Source: a virus
Taxonomy: Duplodnaviria > Heunggongvirae > Uroviricota > Caudoviricetes
Length of the DNA stretch: 64,000 bases
Virus record (IMG/VR): IMGVR_UViG_2623620505_000001
Reading direction: 5' to 3' (one strand)
In this document: positions 2,732 to 58,957 of the stretch, one piece after another
How positions within the stretch are numbered: position 1 is the first letter of the stretch
Layout of the letters: every line of letters starts with the position of its first letter
The notes under the pieces: generated by a model
The model's database searches: none
The model's input: only the letters and a program-made list of their open reading frames with translations
Told to the model about the DNA's origin: nothing
Translations under genes and position numbers: made by a program

Positions 2732-3733
2732 ATGTCAAAGAAAAACAGACCAACAATTGGGCGAACCCTTAATCCTTCAATATTAAGCGGATTTGATAGT
2801 TCTTCAGCCTCTGGCGATCGAGTCGAGCAGGTATTCAAGTTATCAACTGGTCGCCAGGCCACATTTATTGAAGAGGTAATACCTCCGAACCAGGTAGAAA
2901 GCGATACCTTTGTTGATCAGCATAACAACGGGCGTGACCAGGCATCTCTTACGCCAAAATCATTAAAAAGTATCCGAAGCACTATTAAGCATCAGCAATT
3001 TTACCCTGCAATAGGTGTCAGACGGGCTACAGGGAAAATTGAAATTTTGGATGGTTCCCGGCGTCGAGCTTCTGCCATCTTAGAGAACGTAGGGTTGCGG
3101 GTTTTAGTCACGGACCAGGAGATCAGCGTTCAGGAAGCGCAAAATTTAGCGAAAGACGTTCAGACAGCATTGCAGCACAGCATTCGAGAAATAGGTCTGC
3201 GTTTGATGCGAATGAAAAATGATGGGATGAGTCAGAAGGATATTGCAGCCAAAGAAGGGCTGTCTCAGGCGAAGGTCACGCGTGCTCTCCAGGCAGCGAG
3301 TGCTCCGGAAGAATTAGTCGCCCTTTTCCCTGTGCAGTCGGAATTAACCTTTTCGGACTACAAAACGCTTTGTGCTGTTGGCGACGAAATGGGGAACAAG
3401 AATTTAGAGTTTGATCAGCTTATTCAAAACATATCCCCGGAAATAAACGACATCTTATCCATTGAAGAAATGGCCGAAGATGAAGTTAAAAATAAAATCC
3501 TGCGCTTGATAACAAAGGAAGCCTCACTACTCACGGATAAAGGTTCTAAAGATAAGTCCGTAGTTACTGAATTATGGAAATTTGAGGACAAGGATCGCTT
3601 TGCAAGGAAGCGCGTGAAAGGCCGTGCATTTTCTTATGAGTTTAATCGACTCTCAAAAGAGTTACAGGAAGAACTCGACAGGATGATTGGGCATATCCTT
3701 AGAAAGAGCCTCGATAAAAAGCCGAAGCCTTAA
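2732..3733 (+). CDS. parB: partition protein ParB (centromere-binding)
   Basis: 333 aa immediately downstream of parA, followed by heptamer/hexamer centromere. Confidence 0.9.
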   Translation: MSKKNRPTIGRTLNPSILSGFDSSSASGDRVEQVFKLSTGRQATFIEEVIPPNQVESDTFVDQHNNGRDQASLTPKSLKSIRSTIKHQQFYPAIGVRRATGKIEILDGSRRRASAILENVGLRVLVTDQEISVQEAQNLAKDVQTALQHSIREIGLRLMRMKNDGMSQKDIAAKEGLSQAKVTRALQAASAPEELVALFPVQSELTFSDYKTLCAVGDEMGNKNLEFDQLIQNISPEINDILSIEEMAEDEVKNKILRLITKEASLLTDKGSKDKSVVTELWKFEDKDRFARKRVKGRAFSYEFNRLSKELQEELDRMIGHILRKSLDKKPKP

Positions 3734-9730: not shown

Positions 9731-9976
9731 TCAATGTCTGGCTTTTTTTCTATAGAAATCACCTGGAAGGGTGAATATCCACATCAGAAGAAATGTTGCA
9801 GCAAACATGATCCCTAATGGCCAGACCGCGCCAAAGAAAATCCATACTAAGATCTTCTCTGCTTGTTCTTTGCGGTCGATATCGACAAGCATTTTTCGGC
9901 TGATCATGTATACACAGAAGCCAATACAAACATATCCTGCAAAAGCGATCGCTAACTGTAAAAAATCAGATTGCAT
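9731..9976 (-). CDS. small two-TM membrane protein (track ORF 9731..10057 trimmed to internal ATG because upstream part overlaps repL)
   Basis: Hydrophobic segments LAIAFAGYVCIGFCVYMI and ILVWIFFGAVWPLGIMFAATFLLMWIF. Confidence 0.4.
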   Translation of the reverse strand: MQSDFLQLAIAFAGYVCIGFCVYMISRKMLVDIDRKEQAEKILVWIFFGAVWPLGIMFAATFLLMWIFTLPGDFYRKKARH

Positions 9977-43653: not shown

Positions 43654-46600
43654 ATGAACAAGCTATCTATGGGGGTGTTTCGCTGTTCAAGTGTCAGCGA
43701 AATATTGAAATACATTAGGGCAATAACATCTCACCGAGCGCCGATTAAATACGGCGTGGAAAAGGTGGAAGGCAAAAGCTATGACCGACTGCGCCGTGAG
43801 GCGAATCAGAAGGCGATAGATTTGCTTAATTCGCTGGTGGACGGCGCGACACTGACAGATGAACAGCGCCAGATCCTGGCTGGGTACACCGGTGAAGGCG
43901 GCATTGGCGGGTCCGTCTCCGAATATTACACACCAAAGCCGATCGCTGAAGGTGTCTGGGAGATCATGAAGCTCTACGGCGCGGACGTAGGTAACACTCT
44001 GGAACCATCGGCGGGAACCGGCGTTTTTAATGAGACAAAACCGGTTGGTACGGTGATGACCGCGACTGAGATCAGCAGTGTTTCCGGTCGTATAAACCAG
44101 CTGTTGCACCCGGAAGACAGCGTACAGATTTCTCCGTTCGAACAACTGGCTGTAAGCACGCCTAACGATTCATTCGACCATGTTGTGGGTAACGTTCCGT
44201 TCGGTGGTCGTGATAACACACGCAACATCGATAAGCCTTACGCAGAAGAAACGGACATGGGTTCTTACTTCATGCTCCGCATGCTGGACAAGATAAAGCC
44301 AGGCGGATTCATGTGCGTGATTGTGCCGCCGTCCATTGTTTCAGGTTCAAACATGAAGCGGTTACGCCTGCGCCTATCACGGAAAGCTGAATTTCTTGGT
44401 GCCCACCGCTTGCCTACCGGTACTTTTGACGCAAACGGGACCAGTACAGTTGTTGATGTGGTGCTGATGCGCAAACATCCGGCAGAGATGGCTGAGAAAA
44501 TCCCCCTGGTGGATGAAAGCACTCTCGAATCGGCAAATGTGCTTTGGCCAACGTTTATTTCTGGCAAGTGGTTTGAAAAGGACGGCCGCCGGTTTGTTCA
44601 TGGCACCCAGGAAAAGGGCTTCCAGGGGCGTATTGAGGTTCGTGCCGACGGTCAGATTGATAACCAGGCTCTTAAAGCGAAGCTGATTCATCGTTTCGAA
44701 AGCCGTATCGACTGGTCTTTGCTCGATATGGCTGAACCGTCACCGACCGCAGACGTTGTTGGTGAAGGGGAAATGCGCCTGATTAATGGCGTATGGCAAA
44801 AATATGCTGGTGGTCGCTGGATTGAAGCTGATGCCGGGAAGGAACTTAAGATCGATGCTGCCAGTTATGGCGCGGATAGCTGGGAGGCTCTTCAGCGTAA
44901 CCTGACTACAACAGAAGGCCGTCTCGGCATGACATTTACCCAGATGGCAAATGTCCGCGATAAGTACACCACATCAATCAGCGACGATATGGTGCAGCTG
45001 GTGGACTGGATTAACAGCCAGCCTGAAAAATACCGTGAACGCTTGTATCGCGGGGCGATGATTGGCCGGATGTTAATTGAATATCAGGACATGAAGGCCG
45101 CCGGGCATAGTGCTGAACAAATCGAACAGCAGCGCCTTTCTCTGGTATCCCGTTTGCAGGCAGAGATTGACCGTTTTGGTAACCCCGGTCGCGGTCCGAT
45201 AGCGAAATTGTCGGGGAGCGGTGCGCGCGCCTGGTTTGCTTTCCGTGGTGCAATTAAGCTGGATGGCACTATTTCTGACGAGCTGACAGGGAAGCTGGTT
45301 ACGCATGATTCCAGCGCAAGTTATGACTCCACCAGCTATCAGGACACCCTGCGTTATCTCTATAGCGATCTCACCCGCGATCCAATCCAGCTCGATGATT
45401 TCCGCCTTGCGTTTACCGGCGAACTGCCAGCCAGTGATGAAGAGTTGCTTAATTTATTGGCCAGCACCCCTGGTATTGCGGTTTCACCGTATGGCGGGAT
45501 TGTTCCGTTCGCCCGCGCCACCAGCGGCGACATTAACGAGATAGTGGCTCCAAAACAGGAATTCCTCGCCACACTCCCCGACGGTCCAGTAAAGAACAAC
45601 GTCCTTAATCAGCTGGCAGCTATCGAAGAGAAGCGCATCAAGACGCCAGCAGAGAATATCCGGTTTAAGCTCAATAGCCGTTGGTTCGACCGTTCCGTCA
45701 TTCTGGAATTTTTGCAGGAAAACGGCTATCCGGATCTGCGCTATGTGCAGTCAGTGCAGCTGGAAGGCGACGAAATGGTTTCTGACACCTATCACGGTGG
45801 TGATGGTCTGTTCGTCGGGCACCGATACGGTGTCGTCCAGCGCAAGGATAAAGAAACAGGTGAGATTCGCTACGAGTGGGACCGTAAATCAGGTGAAAAC
45901 GCGACCGGGTTCCCGGCACAGCTGGAAAAGTATCTCAATGGTGCGCGTATCGGTGGCAAAGATAGCGCGGCGGCGAACGGCTACCGCGAGCAGATGGCAC
46001 TGCTTGAGGACCAGTTCAATAAGTGGATCAAGACGCACGATCGCTACGATGAGCTGGTTGCCAAATACAACGATGTGTTCAATAGCAATATCCCGTATGA
46101 ACACTCTGGCGATCCGCTTGGGTTGAAGGGATTAAGCGGTAAGCGCCAGCCATTTGATTACCAGAATAGCGAGGTGCGCCGACTGTCCGAAGATGGGCGC
46201 GGCATCCTGGGCTTCGGCACCGGGCTGGGTAAAACCACGACCGCGCTGGCGCTTGAGGCGTTCAACTATGAGAACGGTCGCTCCACCCGTACTGCGTATG
46301 TAGTGCCTAAATCAGTGCTGGAAAACTGGTATTACGAAGCAAAAGAATTCCTGAGTGAAGAGGCATTCAGTAACTACCTGTTCGTCGGTCTTGATGTGCT
46401 GATGGATGGCGATCAGATTCGCCAGGTGCAGGTGCTCGATGAGAACGGTAAACCTGTTCTTGGTACTGATGGCACTCCAGTTATGCGCGATGCTCTTAAG
46501 CTGGCAGATGAAGCCACTATCACGGCGCGGATGAACGCGATCCCGCACTCAAATTACCGTGCAGTCGTGTTTACCAAAGAACAATACGCCCGCATTCCGC

Positions 46601-49600
46601 TACGTGATGACACCGTAGATGAGCATGCACAGGATATGCTTTATGACTTCGTTGCCGCCGGACGCGTAGCCAGCGCAATGGACTCCGACTCCCACCGCAA
46701 AGAGGCCGCGCGTCGCCGGGTATTGTCGGAGTATTCAGATACCGGCACCGAAAAAGCAGAGAAGTATCCGTACTTTGAGGATATGGGCTTCGATAGTGTG
46801 ATCGCTGACGAAGGTCACAACTACCGCAATAGCTATAAAAATGGTCGCGAAGCGTCACAACTGGCCTATCTGCCCACCAGCGCGGTGGCGCAATCGGCGC
46901 GAGATATGGCAATTAAAAACGCGTACCTGATGAAAAAGAATGGTGGGCGCGGGCCGGTTCTCCTGACTGCAACGCCAGTCGTTAACACCCCGATCGATGC
47001 ATACAACATGCTTTCTCATGTTCTGCCGAAGGAATACTGGCAGAACATGGGGATCTACGGTCCTGATGACTTCGTTAAATTCTTCGGCAAGACCAGGCTG
47101 GAAACGGTACAGAAAATTAGCGGTGAAGTTGAAGAAAAAATGGCGCTGGTGGGCTTTGAAAACCTTGATGCGCTGCGCGGTATATTCCATCGCTGGGTAA
47201 CGCTTAAAACGGCGGAAGACGTTAAGGATACCGTGGAGATCCCGGAGCTGGACGAACACCAGCAGGATGCACCACTTACTGAAGAACAACTGGCGGCGTA
47301 TGAAGAATTGCGTCAGCAGGCGGAAGCGGCGGCCAAAGCCAACAATGGCGTAACGACCTCGGTCAATGAAGACGGCGTGATTGAGCACGAGAAAGCCCGT
47401 CCGATCTTCTCAATAATCAGGGATATGGACCGCGTATGTACTGACATGGACCTGTACTATCGCCGGATCACCTATCGTTTCCTGCCGGAGTACGCCGATG
47501 CGGTGCAGCAGCTGGCGGACAGTTTGCCTAAACAAGCCACCAGCGAAGACGACGACAGTGATGATTCAATCACGCAGCAATCGCAATACTCCCTGATAGA
47601 TAAGGGCGAGTTTATTCAGTTGCAGGTTCCGGAAGCGTTCGAGCAGGAAGTGAATAAGCGCCTGGCCAGGTTTGGCATTGACGAACAGACCGTAACTCAC
47701 CCCGTTACGCCCAAATACGCGAAGCTGATTGCCACGCTGAAGGAGTTTTTCCCGGAAGGTAAGCAAATCATCTTCACCGATGAAAAAACGCAGCACCAGA
47801 AGCTCAAGCGCATTATCTGCAATGCTCTTAACCTTGAACCTTCAAAGGTGGGGATACTGAATGCTCAGACGGTTGCCGAGGCAGGTAAAACCGGTAAGAA
47901 ACTGAAAGCGGTTAAACCGCCGAAAGAGTTACCGGATGAACCAACAGATGCACAGATAGCGAAATACAACGAGCAAATGGCTCTGTATGACGCCTATATC
48001 GCGCAGCAAAATGAAATGTCGTTGGGCGGTCTGGAAAAGATTGCAGCCGACTTCCAGGAGGGCCGGACTCCGATCATCATCTGCAACAAAAAGGCAGAGG
48101 TGGGTATCAACCTGCATCGAGGAACGACTGACATCCATCATCTGACGTTGCCATGGACTCCAGCCAGTATTGCGCAACGAAACGGTCGCGGTGCCCGAGT
48201 TGGCTCCAACCGTGCAAGCGTTCGCGTTCACTACTACTGCGGCAAGGGGTCTTTCGATGAATACCGACTGAAGACGCTGAAGCGTAAAGCAGGCTGGATC
48301 TCCGATATCCTCCGTTCAGATAAGTCAGAAATGGAGAACGCCGACGCCAACGATATGATCGAAATGCAGATGTATACCGCGAAGGATGACGGCGAACGTC
48401 TGGCAATGATGCAGGTTCAAATGGATAAGGCGAAAGCTGCGAAACGCGCTCGCCAGAAAGAACAGGCTACTATCGACCTTCAGAACTACATCAAGGCGCA
48501 GCACGCAGCTGGTGAGGATGTGGAGGTACTTACCGCTGAATTGGAGCGAAGCAAAGCGGAACTTGAAAAGACCACCGCCGACGTCGCCAAATTCAAACAG
48601 GCGGTAATGGCCAAAGCAGCTGATAACGCAGACTGGAAAGCCCGCTGGGGTAGCGTCCATCACACAGACCGTATGTTGTTAGCACAGTATCGCGCGTCGT
48701 TGAAAAGCGCCATTCAGCGCAAGGCTAATATCTCTCAGGCCATCTCCCGCTATGAGAAATTATTGAACCGTACTCAGAAGGCCGCGACGGATATCAAACG
48801 CCTGCGCCCGCTGGTGGAGGATGCAATAAATAAAGGCATTCTGGATGTTGATCCTGATCTGGTTAACCATGCGAATGAGTTCCTTGTTATCGGCGATCGC
48901 TCATGGCGTGTAGGCCAATACTATGATTGTGCCGGTGATATCGTTCGCATTAAGTCGCTGGACTTCGACAGCCAGCGCGCAGACGTGGAGATCATCTTTA
49001 CCTTCAAAGGCACCAAATCGGGTAACTGGGATGTGAAGACGCTGGATAAACAGGTTGATGTAACTCCCGATGAAGATGCTGTTATGCAGAAAATCAGTGG
49101 TGGCGTCTCCATCGCCGGGATTAACGACATCGTTTCCTGTGACGATTTCTACCGTTTCCAGCAGCGCGGCATGATCAAAATCACTGACTCATACGGCGTT
49201 CAGACTACAGAGTCAGGCTATAGCATTGATTTTGTTGGTACCTATACGGACCCACTGAAGCATGCGGTTTACCCGGATCGCCGTGACGGCGCGCTGAAGT
49301 CGTCAATTGCAAAATGGGTGCTTGGTATGATGTCGGAAGGGAATAACCGCCAGATCCGTTCGGCAGAAGCATTCCTGGTTGAACTGTTTGGCTCCAATTA
49401 TGGCGATGTAATCGCGTCATACGGAGATACGCTATCCCCTGAAGCAATTCAGGAGAAAATAGCGGATGCGATCGCCAGAATGCCGGAAAAAACAAGCCAG
49501 GGGGCTACTCGTAACGGGGATTCTGAACTTGAAGTCACCAATGCCATTTTCGGTACCAATGAGTTCCGGGCGTCAGATTATGAGATCACCACAGCACAGT

Positions 49601-50421
49601 TTGGCACCATTGGCATTTACAGCAATAAAGACGAGATCAAGCAGGCAATGGACGCAGCAAGCGCGCGCATCGCAGCAGAACGGGAAGCCAATCTGAATCA
49701 TGCAGTCGCCGCGCTGACTCAATCGTGGGTAACAGCAATCAGGGAGGCCGCCACCACAGGGAAAATCACACCTGCAATAGCGGATGTCGTAAACGACGGC
49801 TCTAAATTTATGGATGCCTATCAAATGGATGCGGTGAAGTTGCCATCAGCCTATGGTCAACTCAGCTATCGCATGACCTACAACCTGGTATCAATGTTTT
49901 CCGACCTTGCCATCCTTGGGCTGGTGGATCTTAACGAGGTTACGCCGGAATTGCTCAGCATGCGCAAGAATCATGTGGAGATATTGCAGAGAATTAACAC
50001 GGTTCTTGCCGGGCGCACCGATGAAGAGAAACAGGCCGACGCTGATCGGATAAACCTGGCCCTTGGCAACATCACGGAGGAAGAGATTGCCGCCAGAAAC
50101 GAGAAACAAGAAGAGTTATCATCAATACAGGGTGATGCCACCAGCATAGCTCAGTCTCTTGGTCTGAATTATCGCGTATCCACCGCCGACCTGAAGATGA
50201 TGTACGCACCAAAATTCGCCGCTGGCGAGGTATTTGGGCTTCAGGAAGCCTCAGGCATGAAAGGCGTTCTTTTCCGTGCGAAAGACGCAATCAAGGCGAA
50301 ATTCGGCGCTCGCTGGCTGCCAGCGAAGGCGAAGAACAGCGATTTCCCGGGTAACTGGTGGATTATCGAGACAAAACACAACGTGGCGGACGTTCTGGCC
50401 GTCATCCAACAATACGCATAA
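43654..50421 (+). CDS. darB: DarB-like giant anti-restriction protein (N6-adenine methyltransferase-like N-terminus plus DEAH helicase domains)
   Basis: 2255 aa; MTase-like motif VGNVPFGG; helicase motif II VIADEGHNYRN and helicase C motif; P1 darB position. Confidence 0.85.
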   Translation: MNKLSMGVFRCSSVSEILKYIRAITSHRAPIKYGVEKVEGKSYDRLRREANQKAIDLLNSLVDGATLTDEQRQILAGYTGEGGIGGSVSEYYTPKPIAEGVWEIMKLYGADVGNTLEPSAGTGVFNETKPVGTVMTATEISSVSGRINQLLHPEDSVQISPFEQLAVSTPNDSFDHVVGNVPFGGRDNTRNIDKPYAEETDMGSYFMLRMLDKIKPGGFMCVIVPPSIVSGSNMKRLRLRLSRKAEFLGAHRLPTGTFDANGTSTVVDVVLMRKHPAEMAEKIPLVDESTLESANVLWPTFISGKWFEKDGRRFVHGTQEKGFQGRIEVRADGQIDNQALKAKLIHRFESRIDWSLLDMAEPSPTADVVGEGEMRLINGVWQKYAGGRWIEADAGKELKIDAASYGADSWEALQRNLTTTEGRLGMTFTQMANVRDKYTTSISDDMVQLVDWINSQPEKYRERLYRGAMIGRMLIEYQDMKAAGHSAEQIEQQRLSLVSRLQAEIDRFGNPGRGPIAKLSGSGARAWFAFRGAIKLDGTISDELTGKLVTHDSSASYDSTSYQDTLRYLYSDLTRDPIQLDDFRLAFTGELPASDEELLNLLASTPGIAVSPYGGIVPFARATSGDINEIVAPKQEFLATLPDGPVKNNVLNQLAAIEEKRIKTPAENIRFKLNSRWFDRSVILEFLQENGYPDLRYVQSVQLEGDEMVSDTYHGGDGLFVGHRYGVVQRKDKETGEIRYEWDRKSGENATGFPAQLEKYLNGARIGGKDSAAANGYREQMALLEDQFNKWIKTHDRYDELVAKYNDVFNSNIPYEHSGDPLGLKGLSGKRQPFDYQNSEVRRLSEDGRGILGFGTGLGKTTTALALEAFNYENGRSTRTAYVVPKSVLENWYYEAKEFLSEEAFSNYLFVGLDVLMDGDQIRQVQVLDENGKPVLGTDGTPVMRDALKLADEATITARMNAIPHSNYRAVVFTKEQYARIPLRDDTVDEHAQDMLYDFVAAGRVASAMDSDSHRKEAARRRVLSEYSDTGTEKAEKYPYFEDMGFDSVIADEGHNYRNSYKNGREASQLAYLPTSAVAQSARDMAIKNAYLMKKNGGRGPVLLTATPVVNTPIDAYNMLSHVLPKEYWQNMGIYGPDDFVKFFGKTRLETVQKISGEVEEKMALVGFENLDALRGIFHRWVTLKTAEDVKDTVEIPELDEHQQDAPLTEEQLAAYEELRQQAEAAAKANNGVTTSVNEDGVIEHEKARPIFSIIRDMDRVCTDMDLYYRRITYRFLPEYADAVQQLADSLPKQATSEDDDSDDSITQQSQYSLIDKGEFIQLQVPEAFEQEVNKRLARFGIDEQTVTHPVTPKYAKLIATLKEFFPEGKQIIFTDEKTQHQKLKRIICNALNLEPSKVGILNAQTVAEAGKTGKKLKAVKPPKELPDEPTDAQIAKYNEQMALYDAYIAQQNEMSLGGLEKIAADFQEGRTPIIICNKKAEVGINLHRGTTDIHHLTLPWTPASIAQRNGRGARVGSNRASVRVHYYCGKGSFDEYRLKTLKRKAGWISDILRSDKSEMENADANDMIEMQMYTAKDDGERLAMMQVQMDKAKAAKRARQKEQATIDLQNYIKAQHAAGEDVEVLTAELERSKAELEKTTADVAKFKQAVMAKAADNADWKARWGSVHHTDRMLLAQYRASLKSAIQRKANISQAISRYEKLLNRTQKAATDIKRLRPLVEDAINKGILDVDPDLVNHANEFLVIGDRSWRVGQYYDCAGDIVRIKSLDFDSQRADVEIIFTFKGTKSGNWDVKTLDKQVDVTPDEDAVMQKISGGVSIAGINDIVSCDDFYRFQQRGMIKITDSYGVQTTESGYSIDFVGTYTDPLKHAVYPDRRDGALKSSIAKWVLGMMSEGNNRQIRSAEAFLVELFGSNYGDVIASYGDTLSPEAIQEKIADAIARMPEKTSQGATRNGDSELEVTNAIFGTNEFRASDYEITTAQFGTIGIYSNKDEIKQAMDAASARIAAEREANLNHAVAALTQSWVTAIREAATTGKITPAIADVVNDGSKFMDAYQMDAVKLPSAYGQLSYRMTYNLVSMFSDLAILGLVDLNEVTPELLSMRKNHVEILQRINTVLAGRTDEEKQADADRINLALGNITEEEIAARNEKQEELSSIQGDATSIAQSLGLNYRVSTADLKMMYAPKFAAGEVFGLQEASGMKGVLFRAKDAIKAKFGARWLPAKAKNSDFPGNWWIIETKHNVADVLAVIQQYA

Positions 50422-50454
50422 CAGGAGCGCCCGGTTCGCCGGGCGTCGCATAAT

Positions 50455-50895
50455 ATGGCCACACTATCTGATACAATAAAACCGAATAAAACATATCTTG
50501 AGGCGGTACTCCGTACAGCGTTGTTAGGAAAGACAGAAGACGAATACGTTGATTTCTTCCTGTCAGGGCTACGCGGGCGATTACTGAAAAATCCCCGCCT
50601 GTACCGCAGCTATGGTCCATACTGGCCGGAAATTAAAAAATTATTACTGGAGCGCGGTTATGGTAATTTCGGTCGTCTCGTTGACCGTGACGTTCGCAAA
50701 ATTTACCGTTATGACCGCCCGGCGCTAACACTCATAGCCGCGACGCTCTACAGCCAGGAGCGTTTTGATAATGGTCAGATATACTCAGCCTGGCATTTAC
50801 TGCCAGTGCCTGAAGAAGTTGACGACCAGGACTATGAGTTTGAGTCTTACGATTTGGAAGTTGAAGCCTTGGCACAGGCTGGAGAGAAAACTTGA
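50455..50895 (+). CDS. ulx: Ulx-like protein
   Basis: 146 aa between darB and lxc, as in P1. Confidence 0.55.
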   Translation: MATLSDTIKPNKTYLEAVLRTALLGKTEDEYVDFFLSGLRGRLLKNPRLYRSYGPYWPEIKKLLLERGYGNFGRLVDRDVRKIYRYDRPALTLIAATLYSQERFDNGQIYSAWHLLPVPEEVDDQDYEFESYDLEVEALAQAGEKT

Positions 50896-51140
50896 AAAAG
50901 CGATACTACACAGTAAAGCATGGGACGCTACGAGCATTACAAGAGTTTGCTGATAAGCATAACGTTGAGGTGCGCAGGGAAGGGGGAAGTAAAGCTCTGC
51001 GCATGTACCGTCCGGACGGGAAATGGCGTACGGTCGTCGATTTCAAAACTAACAGCGTTCCCCAGGGCGTCCGCGACCGGGCATTCGAAGAATGGGAGCA
51101 GATCATCATAGATAACGCATTGCTCCTGAATGCTGATTAA
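50892..51140 (+). CDS. lxc: Lxc/Bof-like C1 co-repressor
   Basis: 82 aa basic protein; size and position of P1 lxc. Confidence 0.55.
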   Translation: MKKRYYTVKHGTLRALQEFADKHNVEVRREGGSKALRMYRPDGKWRTVVDFKTNSVPQGVRDRAFEEWEQIIIDNALLLNAD

Positions 51141-51177
51141 ATCTTTGGCTATGCCTGGCTAAGCCAGGCATAGGAAT

Positions 51178-52317
51178 TTACACAGTATCAATGTGTCTGC
51201 TAAGGAATCTCCCGAACTGATTTGTTGACCCAAAATAGTTAGGATAAGCCTTTTTAAGAGATTTAATGTTGTTAGTGGCAAGCAGCACCGCAATTAATAC
51301 TTCAGGATCCGCATCATCCTTATTAAGTTCCTGGAGGGCTTGTTCCGATTCTTTTTTCCTAAAAGGTTTCACAGAAACAAGAAACTTTCCAGTATCCTTG
51401 CCATTTTTTGTTATGGCGTTTCTCATCCTCACCAAAAAGAATCCATTATGGTTTTTGGGCAGGCTTTTCTTTAGGTTTGCATCTGATGTCAGCTTCATTG
51501 CAAATGTATATGTACTTAATTTTGAGCGAACAGATAAAGCCTCCTCCAATGTTTTAAGCTCTGTTTGATAATTTTTGATGGTTTCATCATCAAGAATACA
51601 GGCACCTTCATCATGAGCAACTAGGCATCCAGAAAGATAAAAAAATCTTCTCCACTCAGGGTGACCTTCATTAGAAGTTTTCAGCTTAATATTTTCAAGT
51701 GTATCTATTATCTCCAGACTTGTTGCCCAAGCATGTTGGAGTTCTGTTCTTAGTTGTACTTCGATTTTAGTTTTACTCCACGGATTGTTACCGTTTTCTT
51801 CATCAAAACAACTATATGCAAGGTGAATGCCACTATATCCGCTTGGCTTTGGAGTTAAATAGTCATATTCCTTTAAGATTTTATGCTTGGAGCGACTTTT
51901 AACTAGTCGGTCTTTTAGTTTCTTTAGTTGTTCGATGTTTCTAACTATAGCTCTACATCCGCCAATATCCTGCATTCTAGTAAGGGCTATTGCATTATTT
52001 GTTGCGCCGCCGTCAAGACTTGGACGCTCCAGTTTATCAATTATTGTGCTAAGTCTTTTTAGGCGTCTTGCAACAATAATCTTATTCTCTTTATCAACTT
52101 TTTTTGCAGCCCTATCAAGATGATTTTTCATTAGCATCAATGGATATAAATGAAGCTCGCGGAAATTTTGAATCATTTTAATTGCTTCTTCTCGCTCTGC
52201 GCCCTCACAACCATGTCTAATTTTTCTGGCTGCTTTTTCTATTTGAGATTTCGAATATTTAAGTTCGCATTTTTGGCTTTGATATACTTCACTGCCCATT
52301 ACTAACATCCAGTTCAA
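51178..52317 (-). CDS. RelA/SpoT-homolog (toxSAS-type) nucleotide pyrophosphokinase, likely fused toxin-antitoxin defence protein (CapRel-like)
   Basis: Seen: RSH synthetase motifs DIGGCRAIV, KPSGYSGIHL, IEVQLRTELQHAWAT; AT-rich gene, TTG/weak start, no separate antitoxin ORF nearby. CapRel comparison is from memory. Confidence 0.75.
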   Translation of the reverse strand: MNWMLVMGSEVYQSQKCELKYSKSQIEKAARKIRHGCEGAEREEAIKMIQNFRELHLYPLMLMKNHLDRAAKKVDKENKIIVARRLKRLSTIIDKLERPSLDGGATNNAIALTRMQDIGGCRAIVRNIEQLKKLKDRLVKSRSKHKILKEYDYLTPKPSGYSGIHLAYSCFDEENGNNPWSKTKIEVQLRTELQHAWATSLEIIDTLENIKLKTSNEGHPEWRRFFYLSGCLVAHDEGACILDDETIKNYQTELKTLEEALSVRSKLSTYTFAMKLTSDANLKKSLPKNHNGFFLVRMRNAITKNGKDTGKFLVSVKPFRKKESEQALQELNKDDADPEVLIAVLLATNNIKSLKKAYPNYFGSTNQFGRFLSRHIDTV

Positions 52318-52411
52318 ATGATTAATGTGTTGTTACATATAATAACAAATCAAGCTAGAAATCAATGGGTATGAAAATGAAACATACCCATAATGTTACC
52401 TAACGTAACTA

Positions 52412-53053
52412 TTATAAATAGTTCTGTTTACCTGTTAATTCTCCTTGCGGCACTTGTTTTTGCGTTAGTGTTTGAGTTCCGCGAATTATGTTAATCAGGG
52501 GACTTAGTAATGATGGTTCCTGATGGGCCTCAACTTCTCCAGCCATTGCCCTGATGTAGTCGGCGCTGGCAACGTTGTTGTATTCCGTCGCAAAGCAACA
52601 TAGTAACGTCAGAACATGTTCTGTCGTTATTTCGCTCCAGTTGATGTTGAAAAATTCATCGCCTTTTTTATCGTGTTCGGAATCGAAGATGCTTTGGTGA
52701 AGGATGTATTTGCCGGATTCCTTGCGCGGTAACTTGATCGCTTTCTGGCGTTCCAATTCCTTGTAAATCTGCATTGCTTCAATCAGTACCGGTCTGCCGT
52801 TCATGAAGGGATCACGCAACCTTACACGCTGGCCAACTCGACCGGTAATAAAGCTGTTTTCCTCTTCCACCAGCACGATAAAACCCTTTTCCTCTTTTTC
52901 TCGCAATTCGCGCAGCAGCTGGAGTTCCATATCGCGGCGGCGTTCAGGGTAGCTGGTCCGCTCAGCCATTATCAGCTCATTGTTGATCCATGCAGCAGTC
53001 ATTGACGCCGGTTTGCCGACGCTCATTGAAACAACGCATATTTTCTTATCCAT
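52412..53053 (-). CDS. hypothetical protein (position of P1 mat)
   Basis: Track ORF 52412..53080 trimmed to MDKK ATG; backbone-like GC content. Confidence 0.45.
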   Translation of the reverse strand: MDKKICVVSMSVGKPASMTAAWINNELIMAERTSYPERRRDMELQLLRELREKEEKGFIVLVEEENSFITGRVGQRVRLRDPFMNGRPVLIEAMQIYKELERQKAIKLPRKESGKYILHQSIFDSEHDKKGDEFFNINWSEITTEHVLTLLCCFATEYNNVASADYIRAMAGEVEAHQEPSLLSPLINIIRGTQTLTQKQVPQGELTGKQNYL

Positions 53054-53241
53054 AGCGCCCCTACAAAAAAGAAAAGCCACCAGCGGCGGCTTAGCAATAC
53101 AACTGAAGGTAGCGCCCGGTACTCAGACTGTGCCGTCCATGGAATATTTGAAAAGGGATCCATCCGTACCGGGCGTGTGATGATTCTGACTCAAGTCACT
53201 TGTCAGTTGTCAATCATTTAAGATTAAAAATAATATATTTA

Positions 53242-53802
53242 TTAGTGCATGATGTTTGCCATTTCATAGGCGTCAGCCAGCAACTCCATCTCTGACTTGT
53301 TCAACAAGGTGAATTCTTTCTTGCCTCCTACCACGCCATCTGCATGAACAGGGACCAGCCAAGGGTATTTTTCTCTTACTTCAGCCGGTGCTGCATGCTG
53401 GTGGTGCCATCTGCAAAGGGGCAATTGCTTTTTGTGACAACCCGGCGCGGTACGACCGGAGATATGGTGCAGAGACACCTCTTCAGATATTACTCCATGC
53501 ATGTAGCAGGCAATGCAGGGGAGAGTGCCAAGAGCATTGGCGATGGTCCGTTCCTCCGCCGTCGGTGTTCGCCCCTTCAAGCCACGAGATTTTATTTTTA
53601 CCGCACTTTTCCGCGTTTTGCTGGCTGGTGGGCGCTCTTTCTGTTTAGCGATACGGCGGTCGATAGAATCCCGCATTTTCTGATATTGCGATTCTCGCCA
53701 GGCGGGGTCAGCCAACTTTTCCCGTTGCCGAGCGATCGCTCGTTCTCTGGCTGCCTTCTGCCACTCGCGGCGCTGTTCAAGTTTTTGTTCGATTGTTTTC
53801 AT
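53242..53802 (-). CDS. ref: Ref-like HNH endonuclease (RecA-dependent)
   Basis: Track ORF 53242..53880 trimmed to MKTIEQKLEQRREWQKAARE start (186 aa) as I recall for P1 Ref; Cys/His HNH-like motifs CIACYMHG...HH...CRWHHQH; C1-operator upstream. Confidence 0.8.
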   Translation of the reverse strand: MKTIEQKLEQRREWQKAARERAIARQREKLADPAWRESQYQKMRDSIDRRIAKQKERPPASKTRKSAVKIKSRGLKGRTPTAEERTIANALGTLPCIACYMHGVISEEVSLHHISGRTAPGCHKKQLPLCRWHHQHAAPAEVREKYPWLVPVHADGVVGGKKEFTLLNKSEMELLADAYEMANIMH

Positions 53803-53890
53803 ATGGCAAAAAAAAGGCGGCCTAATGGCCGCCAATGATGTCAAGGAGTGAAGTAATGGCAACGTCTTCGTAGTTGACAAAAACTGCGGC

Positions 53891-53917
53891 TAAATTATAG
53901 CAATCAATTAGAGCAAT
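53891..53917 (-). promoter_or_regulatory. two overlapping C1 operator-like sites upstream of ref
   Basis: Reverse strand ATTGCTCTAATTGATTG (53901-53917) and adjacent ATTGCTATAATTTA. Confidence 0.6.
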
Positions 53918-54020
53918 GGCAGATATTTTGTTTATCGCGAATCACATTTTTTCACTTCAGTACCTGTGTGCTATACTCCTTCTTGATTGATTGGATGCGG
54001 AATACAAACCCGCTCTTTTG

Positions 54021-54050
54021 TGCAGCCTGGCTCCTTGCCAGGCTTTTTTT
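54021..54050 (+). terminator. rho-independent terminator on + strand
   Basis: AGCCTGGC tccttg GCCAGGCT followed by TTTTTTTTAT. Confidence 0.6.
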
Positions 54051-54361
54051 TATTTCATCATGGAAGCTGTTAACGCTTTGGACCTTGCTGAACTGATTGA
54101 AAGGGCATTGTTTACCTTACCCAGGAGTTCGCCAAATTCCCCCATCACTCTAGTAAGCCCGCGCCGCGCTTCCTCCTCCGTTGCATTCATCACAAAATGT
54201 TCAGCACTCCGCATGCTTTTAACGGGGAACGCAACAGATATCGAGTCGATATCAGGCATCCTATCGCTCAACTTTACGGTGACAATGACAGATGGTGACA
54301 GAATATTAGTGCTTACAGACAGCACTACATATTTTCCGTCGATGTTGAAATCCTTTCTCAT
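54050..54361 (-). CDS. hypothetical protein between cre and ref (position of P1 cra/hxr)
   Basis: 103-aa ORF with C1 operator-like site just upstream. Confidence 0.4.
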   Translation of the reverse strand: MRKDFNIDGKYVVLSVSTNILSPSVIVTVKLSDRMPDIDSISVAFPVKSMRSAEHFVMNATEEEARRGLTRVMGEFGELLGKVNNALSISSARSKALTASMMK

Positions 54362-54377
54362 ATGCCACCATAAATAT

Positions 54378-54394
54378 CAAAGAATTAGAGCAAT
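54378..54394 (-). promoter_or_regulatory. C1 operator-like site
   Basis: Reverse strand ATTGCTCTAATTCTTTG. Confidence 0.5.
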
Positions 54395-54411
54395 CATTTA
54401 CGCGTTAATGG

Positions 54412-55443
54412 CTAATCGCCATCTTCCAGCAGGCGCACCATTGCCCCTGTTTCACTATCCAGGTTACGGATATAGTTCATGACAATATTTACATTGGTCC
54501 AGCCACCAGCTTGCATGATCTCCGGTATTGAAACTCCAGCGCGGGCCATATCTCGCGCGGCTCCGACACGGGCACTGTGTCCAGACCAGGCCAGGTATCT
54601 CTGACCAGAGTCATCCTTAGCGCCGTAAATCAATCGATGAGTTGCTTCAAAAATCCCTTCCAGGGCGCGAGTTGATAGCTGGCTGGTGGCAGATGGCGCG
54701 GCAACACCATTTTTTCTGACCCGGCAAAACAGGTAGTTATTAGGATCATCAGCTACACCAGAGACAGAAATCCATCGCTCGACCAGTTTAGTTACCCCCA
54801 GGCTAAGTGCCTTCTCTACACCTGCGGCGCTAACCAGCGTTTTCGTTCTGCCAATATGGATTAACATTCTCCCACCGTCAGTACGTGAGATATCTTTAAC
54901 CCTGATCCTGGCAATTTCTGCTATACGTAGCAGGGTATTATAAGCAATCCCAAGAAATGCCAGATTACGTATATCCTGGCAGCGATCGCTATTTTCCATG
55001 AGTGAACGAACCTGGTCGAAATCAGTGCGTTCGAACGCCAATGCCTGTTTTGCACGCTCACCGGCATCAACGTTTTCTTTTCGGATCCGTCGCATGACCA
55101 GTGAAACAGCATTGCTGTCACTTGGTCGTGGCAGCCCGGACCGACGATGAAGCATATTTAGCTGGCCCAAATGTTGCTGGATAGTTTTTACTGCCAGACC
55201 GCGCGCCTGAAGATATAGAAGATAATCGCGAACATCTTCAGGTTCTGCGGGAAACCATTTCCGGTTATTCAACTTGCACCATGCCGCCCACGACCGGCAA
55301 ACGGACAGAAGCATTTTCCAGGTATGCTCAGAAAACGCCTGGCGATCCCTGAACATGTCCATCAGGTTCTTGCGAACCTCATCACTCGTTGCATCGACCG
55401 GTAATGCAGGCAAATTTTGGTGTACGGTCAGTAAATTGGACAT
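54412..55443 (-). CDS. cre: Cre site-specific tyrosine recombinase
   Basis: 343 aa beginning MSNLLTVHQNLPALPVDATSDEVRKNLMDMF..., recognised as Cre; loxP 420 bp upstream. Confidence 0.97.
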   Translation of the reverse strand: MSNLLTVHQNLPALPVDATSDEVRKNLMDMFRDRQAFSEHTWKMLLSVCRSWAAWCKLNNRKWFPAEPEDVRDYLLYLQARGLAVKTIQQHLGQLNMLHRRSGLPRPSDSNAVSLVMRRIRKENVDAGERAKQALAFERTDFDQVRSLMENSDRCQDIRNLAFLGIAYNTLLRIAEIARIRVKDISRTDGGRMLIHIGRTKTLVSAAGVEKALSLGVTKLVERWISVSGVADDPNNYLFCRVRKNGVAAPSATSQLSTRALEGIFEATHRLIYGAKDDSGQRYLAWSGHSARVGAARDMARAGVSIPEIMQAGGWTNVNIVMNYIRNLDSETGAMVRLLEDGD

Positions 55444-55450
55444 TTAACAC

Positions 55451-55672
55451 TCAGATAATGGTTTTAAGTAAAGTGTACAGGATCGGCTCTGCCTTTACCT
55501 GTTTATGGTTCTCGTCATAGAAACGCCAGCGACCGCGCGTGCGTTCTATTTTCTCTTCACCGCGCGATAATGACAGTTGACAACTATCACGATCAAACCC
55601 TTTTGCCCGCCAGTAACCACGGTTTTTCTCAAGCTCAAGATGAGTGGACACTTTAGCAGCTGAATATCCCAT
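55451..55672 (-). CDS. small ORF in cre leader region
   Basis: 73-aa ORF between loxP and cre; coding status uncertain. Confidence 0.3.
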   Translation of the reverse strand: MGYSAAKVSTHLELEKNRGYWRAKGFDRDSCQLSLSRGEEKIERTRGRWRFYDENHKQVKAEPILYTLLKTII

Positions 55673-55861: not shown

Positions 55862-55895
55862 ATAACTTCGTATAATGTATGCTATACGAAGTTAT
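55862..55895. other. loxP: loxP recombination site
   Basis: Exact 34-bp ATAACTTCGTATA ATGTATGC TATACGAAGTTAT. Confidence 0.97.
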
Positions 55896-57448: not shown

Positions 57449-57472
57449 TTTCTATCCGGCATGGTCAATGAG

Positions 57473-58957
57473 TTATTCATTAAGCCATGCCAGAGCTTCA
57501 TCAACCTGCGCTTCGTCTTCGACGCTAAGCACTTCATCCTGGGGAACATAATCCGCCAGCATAGCGAAACAATATGTATCCCAATGGTCTGGTGAGTGCA
57601 GGTTGAGTTTTTTCTTCATATCCTCCTTACTCATCACCTTCCATTGACCTGCGGAGTTAATCCCTACAGGGATTTTCGACGCTTCCTCAATAGTTTCATT
57701 ACCCTTATCCAGTCTCATACGACCTGATTTTACGGCCTCTGCGGCTTGAACGTTGGCATAAGCACGCTTATCAAAGTACAGGCTCTTATCTTCACGGCTA
57801 TGCATCTTTTTACCCCAGCGTATACGCTGTACGGTAATACCATAATACTCGTACATCAGATCCGCCGTTGCTTTACCCAGGCCATCGCCGTCTATCGCTA
57901 TGGTGATATTTGGGAATCGCTCAGGATTACATTCTGCGAAAATTTTGGCGGCAAGCTGCGTTTCTGTAACGTCTGTGTATTCCAGCATTCGATAGTTGAT
58001 TACACGGCGTTTATTTCTCTGGCCGGACACCATCATGATATTGATAACGGACTTATCCCGTCCCGTACCACCAGCAACGTCCACACATGCAAGCCAGCCC
58101 CATCCTTTGGCAATCTTGACTTTCCGCCGCGTCGCACGTTCAACCTCATCACGTCCAAGAAGGAAGCCATCCTGTGATTTAGGGAATAGTCCGCGTACTT
58201 TAATCATGTACATAGGGTTATCACGCCCGCCGTACTCCGCCAGCTTCATTTTGATAAATGCTGGCGTTACCAGCGGTGATTCCTCACTGTTAAGCGTGAT
58301 CGCCGTATAAACGCCATCAGGGTTACCAGGACGCTTGGCCAGTTTATGGTGAGTATCGTAGAAATAGCCGCTTGGGCGTGTAGGCTGTGACAGTAATAAG
58401 ATGCGGTTATCCTGTCCGGTAAGAGCACCAGTGATGATACCGAAAGCTCTATCACTGACACCGGAGGCTTCATCGATAATATACAGAAGATGATCTGCGT
58501 GTTCACCGGCGAGAGCTTCTTCACTTCCCAGACGAAAGCCCTTCGGTACTACAGTCCATACACCTTTACCAGTAACCTCATAGAAAGCGGTTTCTGTCAG
58601 AACAAAATAATCAGCAAGCCATGGAAAACGGCTGGTGGCAGTAGCCCAGTTTATCTTGATGTACTTGAATATACCGGTCATTACCTGCTGAATTTTGTTC
58701 GCAACGATAATGGCGCGGGCACCGGGATACATGATTATGAACAACATGATCATGATAGAAGTCATGTCTGATTTCCCGGTACCGTGACCAGACGAAACAG
58801 ATGTCTTGCTACCCTGTTCCTGCACAGACTCAATAATCAGATCCTGCTGCCAGGTAGGTGTTTTGCCGAACAAAACATCAGCGGCCGCAATCCAGTCATA
58901 ACGATATAGCGCCACCAGCTCGCGCCAACGTGGATCCGTTACGCAACTTCTGGCCAT
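57473..58957 (-). CDS. pacB: terminase large subunit PacB
   Basis: 494 aa; Walker A SGHGTGKS, Walker [10 protein letters not shown]; downstream of pacA. Confidence 0.9.

Follow-up and report, generated by a model that had tools for sequence, protein, structure and literature searches.

The gene at positions 51178-52299 of the stretch of DNA analysed here (64,000 nucleotides; hereafter the window) almost certainly encodes CapRel-SJ46, a phage-defence protein in which toxin and antitoxin are fused, and is accessory cargo of a P1-like phage-plasmid. Nothing contradicts this identification. The sequence identity, domain content and position of the gene, together with the boundaries and distribution of its cargo, were established directly in the present analysis. 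CapRel-SJ46 itself is already known: it is the type member of a well characterised system, with a crystal structure and detailed studies published from 2022 onwards. Both the gene and the cargo swap were likewise known beforehand, the slot that it occupies being the published region of difference RD-1.

A single gene occupies the interval between lxc and mat

The gene lies among the following features of the window.

43654-50421, plus strand: darB (flank).
50455-50895, plus strand: ulx (flank).
50892-51140, plus strand: lxc, the left backbone flank, 96-98% identical to the lxc genes of P1 and RCS47.
51147-52426: cargo module as defined against the empty site of RCS47, in which 49 nt replace 1,280 nt of the window.
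52412-53053, minus strand: mat, the right backbone flank, in the 213-codon reading annotated in SJ46.
53242-53880, minus strand: ref (Pfam RecA_dep_nuc, E=1e-49).
54412-55443, minus strand: cre (flank).
55862-55895: a perfect loxP site.

The initial annotation placed a single AT-rich gene between lxc and the mat/ref/cre block, and this was borne out. The listing of open reading frames (ORFs) contains one substantial ORF in 51141-52411, on the minus strand, and the GC content is 0.35-0.37 over 51200-52400 against approximately 0.48-0.54 in the flanks. The gene had been described as 379 aa in length. An ORF of that length is real (51178-52317, minus strand) and is the longest reading, but it begins with a TTG at 52317, six codons upstream of an ATG at 52299. 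This ATG is the start of the annotated and crystallised protein, and the CapRel product (MGSEVYQ...) is 373 aa long. The counterpart in SJ46, BI168_gp058, is annotated as 1122 nt. We therefore give the gene and the two regions of its product as follows.

51178-52299, minus strand: capRel CDS, 373 codons from the ATG at 52299, with the stop codon at 51178-51180.
51484-52299, minus strand: toxSYNTH (RelA/SpoT-type pyrophosphokinase) toxic region, residues 1-272, from the Pfam match and the fragment described in PMC9712102.
51181-51483, minus strand: antitoxin and phage-sensor region, residues 273-373, comprising the pseudo-zinc-finger, anchors, YXXY motif, L280 and L307 (PMC9712102).

All other ORFs of at least 40 aa in the 1.27-kb cargo lie within the capRel CDS, all but one of them on the opposite strand. 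The longest (100 aa; 51266-51568, plus strand) was considered as a hidden antitoxin encoded antisense to capRel and was rejected, since the ORF is lost in a second CapRel allele of 74% identity (hereafter allele 2). Taken together, the ORF listing and the comparison with allele 2, in which the nested ORFs are not conserved, reveal no second conserved ORF and no separate antitoxin gene in the 1.27-kb cargo, as had been claimed from the outset.

Public records name the gene '(p)ppGpp synthetase', 'GTP pyrophosphokinase' or 'RelA/SpoT domain-containing protein'.

The product is identical to CapRel-SJ46

A search of solved structures found the product to be identical to PDB 7ZTB chain A over 373 of 373 residues, and to 9ERV chain A over 372 of 372 (E=1e-250). 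Both entries are structures of CapRel-SJ46 (PMC9712102, PMC11578894; Zhang et al. Nature 2022, 2024). The proposal that the gene encodes a fused toxin-antitoxin of the CapRel type, known from a P1-like prophage, is thus upheld at the level of complete identity. The best PDB relatives after CapRel are weak ones, namely GTP pyrophosphokinases of the RelP/RelQ/YjbM type (E=1e-7 to 1e-4).

Profile searches gave a consistent picture. The initial annotation had named a significant RSH profile match and intact catalytic residues as the checks on its reading, and both were found. Pfam RelA_SpoT matched at E=3e-13 (50.4 bits against a cutoff of 27), covering residues 79-193 (nt 51721-52065); it is the sole Pfam domain in the 379 aa, and the same search found neither an HD hydrolase domain nor the TGS/ACT-type regulatory domains of long RSH proteins (RelA/SpoT). 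The PADLOC model PDC-S33, a candidate single-gene system, matched at full length (E=5e-87; residues 17-376 of the 379-aa ORF). The NCBIfam equivalog for the GTP diphosphokinase YjbM scored 39.4 bits against a cutoff of 320, so that its threshold was not reached. A housekeeping alarmone synthetase was rejected as an assignment on account of this score, which lies far under the NCBIfam cutoff.

The three RSH synthetase motifs quoted in the initial annotation are all present and begin, in the 373-aa numbering, at residues 111 (DIGGCRAIV), 154 (GYSGIHL) and 180 (EVQLRTELQHAWA). R79, R116 and Y155 are present, and hence the ATP-coordinating arginines and the G-loop tyrosine are intact. The YXXY motif reads YPNY at 352-355 (Y352/Y355), and L280 and L307 are also found; since the protein is 100% identical to CapRel-SJ46, every named functional residue is in place. 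A C-terminal extension of roughly 170 aa had been noted, a figure that holds if everything after the Pfam match is counted, but the experimentally defined antitoxin is shorter (residues 273-373, approximately 100 aa). The product has all of the sequence features of the CapRel subfamily: a toxSYNTH domain, a fused C-terminal antitoxin with YXXY, and no separate antitoxin gene. We suggest naming the gene CapRel in annotations, with the description of a fused toxSAS toxin-antitoxin that acts against phages by abortive infection.

The mat/lxc slot behaves as a point of exchange for defence cargo

Variation at this locus has been described repeatedly. The regions of difference among P1-like elements go back to Venturini et al. 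(2019), who defined them, noted that they coincide with low-GC loci such as res-mod, and recorded a "putative phosphokinase" adjoining lxc in pTZ20_1P (PMC6906374). Of the eight variable regions named in a survey from 2022, the first is res-mod (PMC9603915). Lai and Cooper (2024) reported that the RD-1 of a P1-like phage from E. coli M114 contains relAP1, a RelA-like gene always located between mat and lxc, and showed the content of RD-1 to be variable (PMC10865808). A 2025 preprint includes CapRel among the defence systems of P1-like phage-plasmids and finds it commoner in E. coli (bioRxiv 10.1101/2025.09.12.675607).

The junctions between backbone and cargo were placed by BLAST of window positions 50892-53080 against six relatives. 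One falls at 51141-51147, directly behind the lxc stop codon, and the other at the mat stop codon, at 52411-52426. The P1 genes res and mod, together with an IS5, occupy the corresponding interval between mat, which ends at 3468, and lxc, which ends at 9750; in RCS47 the site is empty. The claim that the gene sits in the slot of P1 res-mod was accordingly confirmed as a swap of cargo. The finding that had been named as fatal to the claim, namely presence of the gene at this position throughout P1-like genomes and in P1 itself, was not encountered: the gene is absent from P1 and is not universal at the slot. The cargo thus has the mat and lxc flanks and the low GC content of RD-1 cargo, and other P1-like genomes lack it or have something else in its place.

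Annotations and profile searches confirmed a variety of other occupants. Apart from allele 2 (375 aa), these were a SIR2-like protein (PADLOC PDC-S25, ThsA-like), a YaaC-family protein with a partner weakly resembling nucleoside deoxyribosyltransferases, a DUF2971 protein (PDC-S31), a PIN-domain protein in JL22 (PDC-S34), an Icd-like and KilAC antirepressor module, and a pair of EAL and AraC-type proteins. With type III restriction-modification, two CapRel alleles and SIR2-like, DUF2971, PIN and YaaC cargos all found between the same two genes, the mat/lxc slot behaves as a one-site exchange point for defence cargo. We infer that the capRel cargo was brought into the slot through recombination within the conserved flanks.

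The mat/lxc flanks are matched by 710-713 records in PLSDB. The SJ46 allele was found in 21 records (20 at ≥99% amino acid identity and one partial copy) and allele 2 in approximately 52, the latter being recovered by tblastn and missed by megablast with the cargo alone. A CapRel allele is therefore present in about 10% of P1-like PLSDB plasmids. Among complete E. coli genomes, 13 of 5,426 carry the SJ46 allele, which is plasmid-borne in every case.

The 1,271-bp interval is 99.9% identical at the DNA level to that of the Salmonella phage SJ46 and has the same lxc and mat flanks. Only the base at 52264 differs, a synonymous change at the third position of codon 12. The two elements nonetheless part company close by: the SJ46 record has Tn1721 approximately 190 bp beyond mat and its match to the window ends at 53270, while in the window ref, c8, cre and loxP are all intact. 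The possibility that the window is the SJ46 genome was rejected on this basis. Over 5.1 kb (50400-55500) the window is 100% identical to the E. coli plasmids AP026465.1, NZ_CP128965.1, CP098993.1 and NZ_OY757122.1, and the P1-like phage-plasmid pMTY1887_untypable_1 is colinear with it at 98-99% over most of its length without being identical. The window is an E. coli-type P1-like phage-plasmid and not the SJ46 record.

Sequences at the two ends of the cargo

Three features lie outside the capRel reading frame.

52365-52391: perfect inverted repeat ATGGGTATG-n9-CATACCCAT with 9-bp arms.
52411-52438, minus strand: promoter-like TTAACA-16-TATAAT (11 of 12 matches), straddling the mat stop; a candidate capRel promoter by consensus match only.
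51149-51173: perfect palindrome with 12-nt arms (11-bp stem, 3-nt loop) between the convergent stops of lxc and capRel.

The inverted repeat noticed in the initial annotation exists with the perfect 9-bp arms ascribed to it, but lies six bases from the position first given (52359-52385). It lies 66-92 nt ahead of the capRel start codon and 21-47 nt beyond the mat stop codon, within the cargo and outside the backbone as judged by comparison with relatives. An operator or a 5'-leader hairpin controlling capRel is one interpretation. The arms are perfect and the repeat is unique in the window, with 0 expected by chance; folding predicts an RNA hairpin of -11.7 kcal/mol (z=-2.8). It is also located downstream of the best promoter-like site and travels with the cargo. 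Moreover, native expression has been obtained from the 100-200 bp upstream of the ORF (PMC9712102), a span that would take in both the promoter-like site and the repeat. Against this, the stem is AT-rich and has no U-tract, Rfam gave no match at E≤1 in or around it, there is no similarity to C1 operators, and the repeat is not conserved upstream of allele 2, where a 10-nt gap in the alignment deletes one arm. A controlling role is thus somewhat unlikely in our view, and the repeat may instead be an incidental hairpin or a structure at the end of the mat transcript. Because it is not conserved in allele 2, we make no regulatory claim for it.

Promoter-like sites are no more numerous in this region than chance would predict. 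No C1-operator-like site was found in 51141-52430, although nine occur elsewhere in the window, and a C1 repressor operator before capRel was rejected on this evidence. In the lysogen, capRel presumably has a promoter of its own and is expressed without control by the C1 repressor.

At the opposite end of the cargo, the palindrome at 51149-51173 is predicted to fold at approximately -20 kcal/mol on both strands (z=-4.6 and -4.9), with no clear U-tract. It belongs to the cargo, and each alternative cargo has a different hairpin at the same spot. The palindrome is likely to be a bidirectional transcript-end hairpin.

Mode of action and alternative functions

Toxicity, autoinhibition, triggers, tRNA pyrophosphorylation and abortive infection are ascribed to the present protein from the literature on its identical counterpart, for which the gene had been cloned on pBR322 or integrated into the E. 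coli chromosome. In that work (PMC9712102), residues 1-272 were toxic alone and a C-terminal fragment rescued in trans, while full-length CapRel-SJ46 was non-toxic without a trigger. Plaquing of T2, T4, T6, RB69 and SECphi27 was reduced 10- to 1,000-fold via abortive infection, and the G-loop substitution Y155A abolished defence. The pseudo-zinc-finger domain docks at the ATP site via YXXY (Y352, Y355), between R79 and R116. The major capsid protein of SECphi27, Gp57, binds the C-terminal domain directly and is necessary and sufficient for activation, and the active enzyme carries out ATP-dependent pyrophosphorylation of tRNA in vitro, blocking translation but not transcription. A second, unrelated trigger is the small protein Gp54 of Bas11, for which a co-crystal structure is available (PMC11578894).

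By extension, in an uninfected lysogen of the phage-plasmid described here the C-terminal pseudo-zinc-finger would fold back so that YXXY blocks the ATP site of the toxSYNTH domain. Upon infection, newly made major capsid protein (Gp57 of SECphi27 or its relatives) or Bas11 Gp54 would bind the C-terminal domain and hold CapRel open, and the enzyme would then move pyrophosphate from ATP to tRNAs. Translation would stop and the infection would be aborted, with the clonal population and the resident phage-plasmid being protected.

The database names imply a different activity, that of a small alarmone synthetase raising (p)ppGpp or ppApp, and Lai and Cooper proposed the same for relAP1 in the mat/lxc slot (PMC10865808). 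RelA_SpoT as the only Pfam domain, the weak PDB relatives RelP, RelQ and YjbM, and the agreement of public annotations all speak for such an enzyme. It is nevertheless extremely improbable as a description of this gene: the YjbM equivalog reaches 39 bits where 320 are called for, the identical protein pyrophosphorylates tRNA and inhibits translation rather than transcription (PMC9712102), and CapRel does possess a C-terminal regulatory domain, where PMC10865808 assumed none. A role chiefly in plasmid addiction (post-segregational killing) instead of phage defence, taking over the stabilising function of res-mod in P1, is also very unlikely, if slightly less so. Such a role would suit a toxin-antitoxin module on a low-copy plasmid prophage, and the slot is that of P1 res-mod, which is listed among plasmid addiction systems (PMC6906374). 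Post-segregational killing, however, needs toxin and antitoxin to decay at different rates, which is unavailable here because both reside in one polypeptide. In addition, the untriggered full-length protein is non-toxic (PMC9712102), phd-doc and hok-type modules are already present on the element in close relatives, and null alleles of relAP1 alone have no effect on fitness (PMC10865808).

Phage defence by a fused toxin-antitoxin therefore remains by far the best account of the gene. As a discovery it carries little weight, given that the structure, triggers and mechanism of the family and the variability of the slot have all been published; its use lies in annotation.

A connection with relAP1 and the cost of antibiotic resistance

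In E. coli M114, relAP1 was reported to be both necessary and sufficient for blaTEM-116* to incur a fitness cost. The authors read it as a ppGpp synthetase without regulation, one that "lacks any recognized regulatory domain" (PMC10865808). The same paper states that pTZ20_1P carries relAP1. In our tblastn search of PLSDB, pTZ20_1P carries allele 2, and relAP1 is for this reason most probably the 74%-identical CapRel allele. The compensatory mutation I179S in relAP1 affects a residue that is conserved in both alleles and adjoins the EVQLRT motif. PMC10865808 makes no mention of CapRel, and no paper in the literature searched contains both 'relAP1' and 'CapRel'; the survey of the slot thus ties the literature on resistance cost to the biology of CapRel.

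It is conceivable, though unlikely, that the blaTEM-116* cost represents an immune misfire of CapRel, whereby autoinhibition is partly relieved by a non-phage, plasmid-borne protein or by the stress that it causes. Translation would then be slowed by tRNA pyrophosphorylation, rather than by the rise in ppGpp that Lai and Cooper suggested. Were this so, CapRel cargo, including the SJ46 allele, would shape which resistance genes the hosts of P1-like phage-plasmids can carry cheaply.

Comparison with known systems

Among the closest known systems is allele 2 (for example WP_000526244.1 in CP027133.1; pTZ20_1P). Its single ORF, of 375 aa, lies in the mat/lxc slot with the orientation of capRel in the window, is likewise matched by PADLOC PDC-S33 (E=8e-86), and conserves all of the catalytic and YXXY residues. 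The two alleles are 74% identical in amino acids and approximately 79% in DNA. Much of the synthetase part is 80-96% identical between them, and divergence peaks in the C-terminal sensor (44-64% identity in windows 276-325), which fits the published description of the pseudo-ZFD as the least conserved region of CapRel (PMC9712102). The block of divergence extends from about 51130 to about 52500, starting sharply at the lxc stop and running into the last ~30 codons of mat. Allele 2 differs further in having another terminator hairpin and no upstream inverted repeat.

The housekeeping small alarmone synthetases RelQ/YjbM and RelP/YwaC have the synthetase fold in common with CapRel, and RelQ (5DEC) superposes on the toxSYNTH domain (PMC9712102). 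Their sequence similarity is marginal (E=1e-7 to 1e-4), they are without the sensor domain, and the substrate of CapRel differs, being tRNA. The EcoP1I res-mod genes of P1 resemble capRel in position (the mat/lxc interval, RD-1), in low GC content and in serving defence. They encode a type III restriction-modification system, however, with unrelated proteins and an unrelated mechanism, and take up approximately 6.3 kb including IS5 as against 1.27 kb here. Finally, the bicistronic toxSAS systems PhRel/ATphRel of mycobacteriophage Phrann and FaRel2/ATfaRel2 share with CapRel a RelA/SpoT-type toxin that pyrophosphorylates tRNA, and the antitoxin of bicistronic toxSAS is homologous to the C-terminal region of CapRel (PMC9712102). 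In PhRel/ATphRel and FaRel2/ATfaRel2 toxin and antitoxin are the products of two genes, whereas in CapRel they are fused in one.

The mat-lxc slot as a cargo exchange point

Comparison of window 51141-52426 with loci L002-L013 of other P1-like phage-plasmids revealed that the interval between the backbone genes mat and lxc is a one-site cargo exchange point, whose content consists mostly of defence or defence-candidate genes. Several of the cargos matched the PADLOC candidate models PDC-S25, PDC-S31, PDC-S33 and PDC-S34. Among 60 records picked at even steps out of 713, the commonest occupant was the SIR2-like protein; in some P1-like elements the slot is empty.

Occupants of the mat-lxc slot
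Type III restriction-modification
CapRel, two alleles
SIR2-like protein
YaaC pair
DUF2971
PIN protein
Icd/KilAC module
EAL+AraC pair

When window 50892-53080 was compared with the locus carrying the second CapRel allele (L003), the block over which the two CapRel cargos diverge was found to take in the 3'-terminal ~90 bp of mat as well. Since the divergence block extends this far, the last ~30 codons of mat are exchanged along with the cargo instead of staying with the backbone.

Other variable sites and regulatory elements

The mat-ref interval constitutes a second, smaller variable slot, which is empty in the window (53054-53241) and is occupied in two of the comparison plasmids.

Occupants of the mat-ref slot
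L007 3308-4057, CP102949.1: DUF4145 protein
L013 2669-3223, CP063350.1: 184-aa hypothetical protein

The interval between the pac genes and c1 is a further indel hotspot: at 57462-57475 the window lacks a ~1.7-kb segment of pMTY1887_untypable_1 (L014 4905-6600), which carries part of an ash gene together with one Icd-like and one KilAC antirepressor gene.

The P1 C1-operator consensus ATTGCTCTAATAAATTT was matched nine times in the window with at most three mismatches, against 0.26 matches expected by chance. Some of these sites lie upstream of ref and some around loxP and c1; none of the nine falls within the capRel cargo. A perfect 34-bp loxP site (55862-55895) adjoins cra and cre.

C1-operator-like matches (window positions)
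11772
13434
39857
43708
53901
55939
56022
56486
60760

Relationship to relAP1 and SJ46

The cost of blaTEM-116* in E. coli M114 has been attributed to relAP1, a gene residing in the mat-lxc slot as does capRel in the window (51178-52299), and relAP1 was read in that study, which does not cite CapRel, as an unregulated ppGpp synthetase (PMC10865808). We conclude that relAP1 is a CapRel homologue, and probably the 74% CapRel allele.

The capRel cargo is identical in the window element and SJ46. In the SJ46 reference genome, Tn1721 (tnpA, tnpR) is inserted just past mat (L001 8903-12247; window ~53270), whereas at this position the window retains ref, c8, cre and loxP, all intact. The window thus represents a different, E. 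coli-type P1-like element.
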